This document shows, in pieces, positions 2,536 through 4,473 of a stretch of DNA of 5,733 nt; position 1 is the stretch's first letter; each line of letters opens with the position of its first letter. The stretch lies in IMG/VR virus record IMGVR_UViG_2554235189_000003, one strand, 5' to 3'. The position numbers and the translations under genes are program-made. The notes below the pieces were generated by a model, which saw only the letters and a program-made list of their open reading frames with translations, did not search any database and was not told the DNA's origin. Source of the DNA: a virus (lineage: Duplodnaviria; Heunggongvirae; Uroviricota; Caudoviricetes).

Positions 2536-3030
2536 GTGACTCTTAAACGGGCCTGTTCCCTGCTGACGGTGAAATCCTTCAGTGAGGATGAACGGGTGAT
2601 CACCGGGATTGCGTCAACGCCTTCTCCGGATCGGGATGGTGACATCCTGGAGCCGGAGGGGGCGGAGTTTGGCAGTACGATCCCGTTTCTCTGGCAGCAT
2701 GACCATTCCCGCCCTGTAGGCCAGTGTACGGTGCGTCGGGTCAGGGAAGGGCTGGAAATCACGGCAATGCTGGTGAAGCCGGAGCCGGGGATGCCCTCCC
2801 AGATGGCAGCCCGGCTGGATGAGGCCTGGGCTGCCATTAAGACCGGGCTGGTCAGGGGGCTTTCTGTGGGCTTCCGGCCCCATGAATACACTTATCTGGA
2901 CGGAGGCGGACTGCATTTTCTGCGCTGGGAGCTGATGGAGGTGTCTGCCGTCACCGTGCCCGCGAATGCGGAATGCACCATCCAGACCATTAAATCTTTC
3001 GACCGCCCGTTTTCTGCCGCGTCCGGCAAC
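2536..3030 (+). other. Prohead serine protease domain of the fusion ORF (approximate boundaries)
   Basis: aa 1 to about 165. Boundaries estimated by eye from the translation; the linker FDRPFSAASGNRKPVVKIASSAGASAQSITSFHKEKSA follows. Confidence 0.7.
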
Positions 3031-4473
3031 CGGAAACCGGTGGTGAAAATCGCATCTTCTGCCGGCGCTTCGGCACAGTCAATAACCTCTTTTCATAAGG
3101 AAAAGTCAGCAATGAATACTGGTGAACAGATTAAAAGTTTTGAAAACAAGCGTGCGGCGCTGGCAGCCTCCCTTGAGGGGATCATGAACAAAGCCGCAGA
3201 GGAAGGCCGCACACTGGATGTGGAAGAGGAAGAGCACTACGACAACACCGCAGCGGAAATCCGTCAGGTGGATGCGCACCTGAAGCGTCTGCGTGAACTG
3301 GAAACCAGTAAGGCCGCCACGGCACAGCCGGTGAAACAGGCCGGTAACGGGAATGTGGCCACGGTGGCTTCAGCGCCGGTGATCCGTGTTGAGCAGAAAC
3401 TGGAGAAGGGGATTGGTTTCGCCCGCTTTGCCAAATCACTGGCCGCGGCTAAAGGTGTCCGCTCTGAAGCCCTGGAAGTGGCCCGTCGTCAGTATCCGGA
3501 TGACAGCCGTCTGCATCATGTCCTGAAATCGGCGGTGGGGGCAGGGACCACCACGGACCCACAGTGGGCAGGCAGCCTGTCTGAATATCAGGAATATGCG
3601 CAGGACTTTATTGATTACCTGCGTCCGCAGACCATTATCGGGCGATTTGGTCAGGGCGGGATCCCTGCACTTCGTCAGGTGCCGTTCAATATCCGCGTGC
3701 ATGCCCAGGTGTCCGGCGGTGCTGCCGGCTGGGTGGGGGAGGGTAAGGCCAGACCCCTGACGAAGTTTGATTTTGAGTCCATCACCTTCAGTCATGCGAA
3801 GGTGTCGGCCATTGCGGTACTGACGGAAGAGCTGATCCGTTTTTCCAGTCCGGCAGCTGATGCGCTGGTCCGTAATGCGCTGGCAGAAGCGGTGGTGGCG
3901 CGTCTGGACACAGACTTTGTGGACCCGAAAAAAGCTGCAGTGGCAGATGTCTCCCCGGCGTCCATCACTCATGATGTGAAGGGCACGGCATCAACCGGTA
4001 ACCCGGATGCGGATGCCGAGGCCGCGTTTGGCCAGTTTGTGACGGCAAATCTGCAGCCCACCGGTGCGGTCTGGCTGATGTCCAGCACGAATGCCCTGGC
4101 GCTGTCCATGCGTAAAAATGCGCTGGGGCAGAAGGAATATCCGGACATGACCCTGCTGGGCGGGACCTTCCAGGGGCTGCCGGTGATTGTCTCCCAGTAT
4201 GTGGGTGACCAGCTGGTACTGGTGAATGCGCCGGATATTTATCTGGCTGATGACGGCGGTGTGGCGGTGGATATGTCCCGTGAAGCGTCACTGGAGATGC
4301 AGTCTGAACCGACCAGCGACAGCAGCACACCGTCACCGGTGGAGCTGGTCTCCATGTTTCAGACCGGCAGCGTGGCCATCCGTGCGGAGCGCTGGATCAA
4401 CTGGCGTCGTCGCCGTACCGCGGCAGTGGCGGTGATCACCGGTGTGAACTACGGAACTGCGTCCGGCGGCTGA
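2536..4473 (+). CDS. Fused prohead protease - delta/scaffold segment - HK97-fold major capsid protein (single 645-aa ORF)
   Basis: N-terminal about 155 aa resemble the HK97 prohead serine protease family, with candidate catalytic His in W-Q-H-D-H-S (H55/H57, nt 2698-2706) and Ser in R-G-L-S-V-G-F (S110, nt 2863-2865). aa 193-265 are a charged, heptad-like helical segment (EQIKSFENKRAALAASLEGIMNKAAEEG...LKRLRELETSKAA) typical of a capsid delta domain. The C-terminal about 375 aa end in the HK97-type tail ...SMFQTGSVAIRAERWINWRRRRTAAVAVITGV. GTG start at 2536 with AGGAGG at 2525-2530 (5-nt spacer). One frame, no internal stop. Confidence 0.92.
   Translation: MTLKRACSLLTVKSFSEDERVITGIASTPSPDRDGDILEPEGAEFGSTIPFLWQHDHSRPVGQCTVRRVREGLEITAMLVKPEPGMPSQMAARLDEAWAAIKTGLVRGLSVGFRPHEYTYLDGGGLHFLRWELMEVSAVTVPANAECTIQTIKSFDRPFSAASGNRKPVVKIASSAGASAQSITSFHKEKSAMNTGEQIKSFENKRAALAASLEGIMNKAAEEGRTLDVEEEEHYDNTAAEIRQVDAHLKRLRELETSKAATAQPVKQAGNGNVATVASAPVIRVEQKLEKGIGFARFAKSLAAAKGVRSEALEVARRQYPDDSRLHHVLKSAVGAGTTTDPQWAGSLSEYQEYAQDFIDYLRPQTIIGRFGQGGIPALRQVPFNIRVHAQVSGGAAGWVGEGKARPLTKFDFESITFSHAKVSAIAVLTEELIRFSSPAADALVRNALAEAVVARLDTDFVDPKKAAVADVSPASITHDVKGTASTGNPDADAEAAFGQFVTANLQPTGAVWLMSSTNALALSMRKNALGQKEYPDMTLLGGTFQGLPVIVSQYVGDQLVLVNAPDIYLADDGGVAVDMSREASLEMQSEPTSDSSTPSPVELVSMFQTGSVAIRAERWINWRRRRTAAVAVITGVNYGTASGG
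3112..3330 (+). other. Coiled-coil delta/scaffolding-like segment; begins at internal in-frame ATG 3112, which has its own Shine-Dalgarno
   Basis: AAGGAAAA at 3097-3104 lies 10 nt (counting from the AGGA core, 3098-3101) before in-frame ATG 3112 (M193). Downstream sequence is Ala/Glu/Lys/Leu-rich with helical periodicity. Confidence 0.55.
3340..4473 (+). other. HK97-fold major capsid protein domain of the fusion ORF (approximate start)
   Basis: C-terminal about 375 aa with the characteristic HK97-family C-terminus; start boundary approximate. Confidence 0.75.

Follow-up and report, generated by a model that had tools for sequence, protein, structure and literature searches.

A protease-capsid fusion gene of Shiga toxin-converting phages and their proteobacterial relatives has a conserved internal start site and may be a nested gene pair

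In HK97, the prohead protease and the major capsid protein (MCP) are encoded by two separate genes. In the DNA considered here, a stretch of 5,733 nucleotides from a virus of the Caudoviricetes (IMG/VR record IMGVR_UViG_2554235189_000003; the whole stretch is called the window below), the protease is instead covalently joined to the capsid subunit in a single open reading frame (ORF) of 645 amino acids (Table 1). This architecture raises the question of how protease and capsid protein are supplied to the assembling head: does every capsid subunit bring a protease of its own, or is the capsid protein also made without one? A preliminary description of the locus took the former view and proposed stoichiometric delivery, one protease with each capsid subunit. 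We observe a conserved in-frame start codon, accompanied by a Shine-Dalgarno (SD) sequence, exactly at the junction of the protease and capsid parts. Because of this conserved start site, a protease-less capsid protein is probably made from the same ORF, and a 1:1 stoichiometry of protease to capsid is probably wrong. We regard it as probable that the gene is a nested pair, in which one frame would encode both a 69-kDa protease-capsid fusion and a 48-kDa capsid protein. That a single uninterrupted frame carries both domains, as the preliminary description had it, is borne out by matches above cutoff to PF04586, PF05065, and TIGR01554, and structure prediction followed by Foldseek comparison confirms a protease fold at the N-terminus and an HK97 fold at the C-terminus.

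The junction codon, ATG 3112 (M193), is kept across the family. Among 120 fused representatives, each standing for a distinct 50%-identity cluster, 107 have a methionine 3-8 residues before the EQI motif, against a background of 13% for such a window of residues. This methionine is conserved as well as the best-kept methionines of the folded capsid domain; the linker around it varies in sequence and in length. Where valine takes its place and the DNA is available, the codon is GTG in seven of seven cases (the product of the per-gene GTG fractions among valine codons is about 5e-4), and where leucine does so it is TTG in two of two. The junction codon of the independent Hydrocarboniphaga locus is also GTG. 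Upstream of the start codon, an SD core four-mer is located at positions -17 to -5 in 33 of 33 related loci, compared with a background of 12%; for a start codon and an SD core jointly, the background falls to 0.7% per codon. The motif occurs in differing codon phases and encodes different residues (CTG GAG, TCC GGA GCG, AAA GGA), a pattern suggestive of nucleotide-level selection. Strong forms are found in distant lineages, namely Hydrocarboniphaga (AGGAGG-N6-GTG), Marinobacter (GGGAGG-N8-ATG), Mesorhizobium (AAGGAGG-N9-ATG), a Caulobacteraceae metagenome-assembled genome (GGAGG-N6-ATG), and phage PAJU2 (AGGAGG-N9-ATG). In nearly all loci, the 45-nucleotide window with the lowest content of guanine and cytosine (GC) in the 1.9-kb ORF lies within about 45 nucleotides of the junction codon. 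The conservation of this start site thus suggests that independent translation of the capsid part is probably under selection. The nested product is never annotated by annotation pipelines, and we found no mention of a conserved nested start in the searchable literature, which left out most subscription-journal papers.

A second line of evidence comes from relatives in which protease and capsid protein are separate, namely the Snodgrassella prophages (L027 and L028) and three metagenome loci (L041-L043). These split loci share the synteny of the fused ones, with TerL followed by a protease of 193-234 amino acids, an MCP of 439-465 amino acids, a small ORF, and the portal gene. In every one of them, the start codon of the MCP gene aligns with M193, and representatives consisting of the MCP only (n=5) likewise begin at positions corresponding to residues 193-197 of the window protein. 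If true, the nested-pair reading would explain why the family passes so freely between the split and the fused form.

Several observations weigh against internal initiation. The site in the window itself, AAGGA-N10-ATG, has an SD duplex energy of only -6.2 kcal/mol, which places it at about the 20th percentile of positions within the ORF (the enterobacterial AAGGA generally lies at about the 10th-20th); as this energy is unremarkable, the case for a nested start is drawn from comparative conservation. RNA folding around position 3112 shows no special structure (z -0.5), only low GC. One related locus (L025) is without a start codon within three codons of the aligned column, and 4 of the 120 representatives have neither methionine nor valine nearby. 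The independent fusion of Lactococcus phage Nocturne116 has a junction methionine without a clear SD sequence. The internal site could also be masked by ribosomes that translate through it from the strong upstream start. The homologue in PAJU2 figures in the literature simply as an autocatalytically cleaved polyprotein. Finally, internal initiation is here deduced from the comparison of sequences.

The alternative that survives best, possible but in our judgement unlikely, is an obligate polyprotein. The 645-residue protein would then be the only product, each subunit would bring its own protease and shed the protease, linker, and delta segment after assembly, and the junction methionine and SD sequence would be relics of an ancestral separate capsid gene. 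The strong SD sequence at the 5' end and the single open frame agree with this, as does the persistence of the open frame across very many diverged clusters, which argues that the fusion itself is under selection. Space would not forbid it either: by a rough estimate, 415 copies of residues 1-335 would fill about 55% of a sphere with an assumed radius of 20 nm, which is dense and possible. The idea also has a precedent in PAJU2, whose ORF003 is annotated in GenBank as a structural protein, the "prohead protease fused capsid protein", and for which autocatalytic cleavage of the polyprotein was proposed in 2009 (Uchiyama et al., as cited in PMC8306868). A relic, however, would be expected to decay in an unconserved, length-variable linker at 38-54% protein identity, and here the start codon (methionine, or only GTG and TTG), the phase-varying SD core, and the AT-rich trough all persist.

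PAJU2 is a different phage with a different host, and its ORF003 (UniProt P85500, 'capsid polyprotein'; phrog_617) is 48% identical to the window protein over the full length. It shows the same order of protease, linker, delta segment, and capsid domain, the same neighbors (TerL on the upstream side, small ORFs and the portal gene downstream), and an internal start, AGGAGG-N9-ATG, at the same junction; the passages citing the PAJU2 work do not mention this start. With a homologue proposed as an autocatalytically cleaved capsid polyprotein as early as 2009, such fusions are better documented than the preliminary description suggested. Protease-capsid fusions are also described, as an unusual feature, from Arthrobacter phages of clusters AM, AU, and AN and from Rhodococcus phage RRH1. 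Together with Nocturne116 ORF18 and the NCBI family NF045541 (prohead protease/major capsid protein fusion protein), these actinobacteriophage proteins are single-gene fusions like that of the window, belonging to independent or very distant families. Against NF045541, where the cutoff is 525, the score of the window protein is 48.3 bits; it has the architecture of that family without being a member. Two further candidates for comparison were set aside: a preprint on evasion of the cyclic-oligonucleotide-based antiphage signalling system (CBASS), which concerns protease-scaffold and CD-NTase fusions and not protease-capsid fusions, and ChaoS9, which is not relevant.

Under the nested-pair reading, which we prefer, initiation at GTG 2536 would yield the 69-kDa protein, in which protease, linker, delta-like scaffold, and capsid domain are joined, and initiation at ATG 3112 a 48-kDa delta-plus-capsid protein without protease. 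Because both products share the scaffold and capsid moieties, they would co-assemble in the procapsid shell, and the fused subunits would place protease domains inside it. HK97 gp4 is targeted by a C-terminal tail, and the separate proteases of the split relatives carry such a tail as well; in the fused gene, the covalent tether would stand in for it. Once the shell has assembled, the linker would be cut by the Ser110/His55 protease, which would also take off the delta-like segment, probably near residues 331-341. What remains would be an HK97-fold shell with about 33 kDa per subunit. The ratio of protease to capsid would be set by the relative use of the two starts and would not be fixed at 1:1. 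For the family at large, we lean slightly towards a two-product gene, in which the MCP would be made mostly from the internal start, a minority of subunits would be protease-tethered, and the start ratio would set the protease copy number.

[quoted passage not shown] In these pairs, an N-terminal protease ORF contains an in-frame internal start that yields a protease-less assembly protein, and the full-length product is incorporated through the shared C-terminal part. The window gene resembles them in combining a protease and an assembly module in one ORF with a conserved initiation site at the junction. The protease family differs from that of lambda, which is S49, whereas that of the window is S78. 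A further difference lies in the nested product: lambda, HSV-1, and HFTV1 make a scaffolding protein in its own right, and here the product would be a whole capsid protein with a built-in scaffold, because the putative scaffold is part of the capsid protein itself. Moreover, both products have been demonstrated experimentally in those three systems, whereas in the window gene the second is postulated from sequence comparison. A literature search on internal initiation within a protease-capsid gene turned up only the HFTV1 protease/scaffold study. The fusion and the polyprotein idea are thus known already, and what is new, the conserved nested start, is a logical combination of known schemes. 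If the nested-pair reading is true, the lambda and herpesvirus principle of nested protease and scaffold would reach as far as the capsid protein. Should the internal start be in use, the gene would link three schemes, namely the built-in delta scaffold of HK97, the nested protease-scaffold genes of lambda and herpesviruses, and the protease-capsid fusions. A common head module would then solve protease targeting and dosage in one gene, the protease travelling into the procapsid attached to a capsid subunit, in a number of copies tuned by translation initiation.

The assignment of the N-terminal domain rests on sequence and fold. Pfam Peptidase_S78 (PF04586) matches residues 48-152 with 34.1 bits against a cutoff of 21, and the N-terminal 192 residues are 30% identical to HK97 gp4. 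The residues that the preliminary description had put forward as catalytic, H55 and S110, align with H65 and S114 of HK97 gp4, which are reportedly the catalytic residues of that enzyme. Both are invariant in an alignment of 85 sequences (A2) and at least 90% conserved in one of 125 sequences drawn from representatives of 50%-identity clusters. In an AlphaFold2 model of residues 1-192, residues 17-153 are predicted confidently, with a predicted local distance difference test score (pLDDT) above 93. The six best Foldseek matches of this model in the PDB are herpesvirus assemblin proteases (probability 1.00, E 8.6e-5 to 2.5e-3); a sequence search of the PDB with the ORF protein gave no protease match. 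It is most improbable that this domain is a dead, protease-derived module serving only as extra scaffold, with maturation carried out by another enzyme or not at all. The TIGR01543 (proheadase_HK97) score of 45.7 bits, under the equivalog cutoff of 59, and the modest TM-scores of the herpesvirus matches (0.28-0.48) would be in keeping with such a module, but the histidine and serine matching the catalytic pair of HK97 gp4 are nearly invariant across the family, and the annotated morphogenesis modules of the related prophages and phages list no further protease gene. By its sequence matches, the domain is a member of the S78 family, though not an HK97 gp4 equivalog by the NCBI criterion.

Between the protease and the capsid domain, the Ser/Ala-rich linker noted in the preliminary description is followed by a segment predicted to be largely helical (Table 1). 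The otherwise variable linker contains two conserved motifs, AA[ST]G (residues 161-164) and PG[AV][ST]G (residues 176-180), within nucleotides 3016-3075, and a third, KAAVAAGTT (residues 331-339; nucleotides 3526-3552), is conserved just ahead of the capsid fold. These three motifs may be cleavage or recognition sites of the protease. By its position and by analogy with HK97 gp5, the helical hairpin of residues 193-262 would be the equivalent of the delta, or scaffolding, domain, and the boundary between the delta-like segment and the mature capsid protein is probably near KAAVAAGTT. The delta-like region spans about 143 amino acids and is longer than the HK97 delta domain, which has 103. BLAST detects no sequence similarity between the gp5 delta domain and this region. 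The window gene and HK97 gp4/gp5 have in common the protease family with its His/Ser pair, the capsid fold, and a scaffold, putative in the window protein, at the N-terminus of the capsid protein.

For the capsid domain, PF05065 (Phage_capsid) matches residues 386-635 with 55.7 bits (cutoff 24.2) and TIGR01554 residues 201-584 with 79 bits (cutoff 27.5). The AlphaFold2 model of the full-length protein has a mean pLDDT of 85.5, with values mostly above 90 in the capsid domain, and Foldseek pairs the capsid part with the capsid proteins of Bxb1, D3, HK97, T5, and the Rhodobacter gene transfer agent, each at a probability of 1.00. At the sequence level, the relationship is faint. Searching the PDB returns weak capsid matches only (Bxb1, E 0.003), and the BLAST comparison of the capsid half with HK97 gp5 is not significant: the mature N-terminal region of gp5, from residue 107 onwards, aligns with residue 340 onwards at E 8.7. 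Residue 60 of the Bxb1 MCP aligns with residue 392. The capsid fold proper begins near residue 336 and not, as had been supposed, at residue 270.

The fused gene is widespread. The window is 96-97.5% identical to Shiga toxin (Stx)-converting lambdoid phages of the Stx1a, Stx2c, and some Stx2a types, with 94 matching phage records. Of 5426 complete E. coli genomes, 1283 carry the region, at a median of 2 and a maximum of 8 copies per genome. The closest protein cluster (97% identity, 645 amino acids) has 9916 member sequences. When 1.84 billion cluster representatives were searched exhaustively, 1181 matched at E up to 1e-30; among the best 150 of these, most are 630-680 amino acids long and align over the full length at 38-54% identity. 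In total, the fused gene occurs in more than 100 distinct 50%-identity clusters across Proteobacteria. Among sampled genomes, it is found in Enterobacterales, Marinobacter, Hydrocarboniphaga, Mesorhizobium, Chelativorans, and Caulobacteraceae, and 25 of 28 sampled loci (Alpha- and Gammaproteobacteria) are fused; the two betaproteobacterial Snodgrassella loci are split. Since the frame is conserved as open across the junction, selection maintains the fusion. The split modules of some relatives would fit an artefact in which an error of sequencing or assembly, or a recent mutation of the pseudogene kind, removed a stop codon or frameshift between two genes, but this is refuted by the population data, because the same 645-residue architecture recurs in the cluster members, E. 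coli genomes, and phage records just counted, as well as in the sampled loci and most of the best 150 representatives; the doubt about the assembly raised in the preliminary description is thereby removed. The protease-capsid fusion is a large, old, previously described, and very common family, and the architecture itself is not new. Its head module is carried by about a quarter of complete E. coli genomes, by Stx1a and Stx2c phages, and by many other Proteobacteria. Labels in Stx-phage records vary between "major head protein/prohead protease", "major capsid protein", "phage prohead protease", and "capsid and scaffold".

Table 1 Coordinates of genes, domains, and initiation elements in the window.
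Feature	Position	Strand	Remarks
TerS gene	251-814	+	head/packaging module
TerL gene	811-2472	+	head/packaging module
Shine-Dalgarno AGGAGG for full-length product	2525..2530	+	5 nt 5' of GTG start; read from sequence
Full-length ORF, 645 aa, 69.2 kDa	2536..4473	+	protease, linker, delta-like segment, HK97-fold capsid
Prohead serine protease domain, aa 17-153	2584..2994	+	S78/HK97 gp4 family, assemblin-like fold
His55 codon, candidate catalytic His	2698..2700	+	aligns with HK97 gp4 H65
Ser110 codon, candidate catalytic Ser	2863..2865	+	in GLSVGF; aligns with HK97 gp4 S114 in GMSVGF
Disordered (predicted) Ser/Ala-rich linker, aa 154-192	2995..3111	+	pLDDT <50; 41% Ser+Ala
Internal Shine-Dalgarno-like AAGGA	3097..3101	+	10 nt 5' of ATG 3112; in lowest-GC stretch of the ORF
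Nested in-frame ORF from M193, 453 aa, 48.4 kDa	3112..4473	+	delta-like segment and capsid; putative second product
Helical hairpin, aa 193-262	3112..3321	+	long helices 195-223 and 229-262; AlphaFold2, pLDDT 88-97
Second conserved, partly helical segment, aa 263-335	3322..3540	+	next to K-A-A-V-A-A-G-T-T motif, aa 331-339
HK97-fold capsid domain, aa 336-645	3541..4470	+	PF05065, Foldseek
73-aa ORF	4518-4739	+	phrog_829
Portal gene start	ATG 4685 to window end	+	incomplete in window

The full-length ORF is well defined. Its start codon is GTG, the anti-SD duplex energy of the AGGAGG ahead of it is -10.3 kcal/mol, and relatives have GGAGG at the same place. No other frame across nucleotides 2536-4473 exceeds 178 amino acids, and NCBI PGAP predicts the identical coding sequence (CDS) in a RefSeq genome that is 97.8% identical. 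Its product aligns with the whole of phrog_617 ("major head protein", 626 positions), from end to end (E 2.4e-258). At the position of the full-length start, 16 of 16 enterobacterial relatives examined have ATG where the window has GTG; their internal start codon, like that of the window, is ATG. Should both starts be in use, GTG 2536 would tilt the balance of products in the Stx-phage lineage towards the one without protease. An Rfam scan of the window gave no matches, and a promoter and terminator scan stayed at chance level except for a hairpin at 2497-2514. This terminator-like element, GAACCGC-TCCG-GCGGTTT plus a T-run (2497-2524, plus strand), lies in the gap between TerL and the capsid gene, directly 5' of the AGGAGG. 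In the HK97 record, a 'putative terminator' is annotated at the equivalent spot ahead of gp4.

The gene order TerS, TerL, protease-MCP, small ORF, portal is shared by the window (811-5733) and loci L027, L034-L036, L039, L041, L043, and L044, and the capsid-then-portal order is kept from E. coli to Snodgrassella, Pseudomonas phage PAJU2, and metagenome contigs. In HK97, by contrast, the order is TerL, portal, protease, MCP. At the upstream end, a non-coding gap of about 290 nucleotides (window 1-250) separates TerS from an HNH endonuclease gene, which in related records lies just outside the window. In HNH-dependent HK97-like packaging modules, the cos site usually lies between the HNH gene and TerS.

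A small ORF of 65-121 amino acids lies between the capsid and portal genes in all relatives examined. That of the window has no Pfam match and is overlapped by the portal ATG by 55 nucleotides; it shares an N-terminal motif with the Snodgrassella small ORF (MEIKYLKAMHDAAVGEVKDV vs MAKIQYLQGTHDARAGDIRDV). The small ORF is probably a conserved head component. Besides the fusion gene, the window holds only TerS, TerL, this ORF, and the start of the portal gene, so that no separate scaffold gene is present, in agreement with the preliminary description. This statement is valid for the window only, because an ORF of 407 amino acids beyond the portal gene may be scaffold-like. The latter, at L040:9545-10765 (L001:13682-16266), overlaps the end of the portal gene, is without a Pfam domain, and corresponds to the C-terminal half of phrog_2271, a 'portal protein' profile of 859 positions. 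The portal gene and the 407-residue ORF could represent a split/fused polymorphism, a programmed frameshift, or a portal gene followed by a separate protein, either internal or scaffold-like; in PGAP the two are merged and marked 'frameshifted', and the phage record lists them as two 'portal' CDSs.

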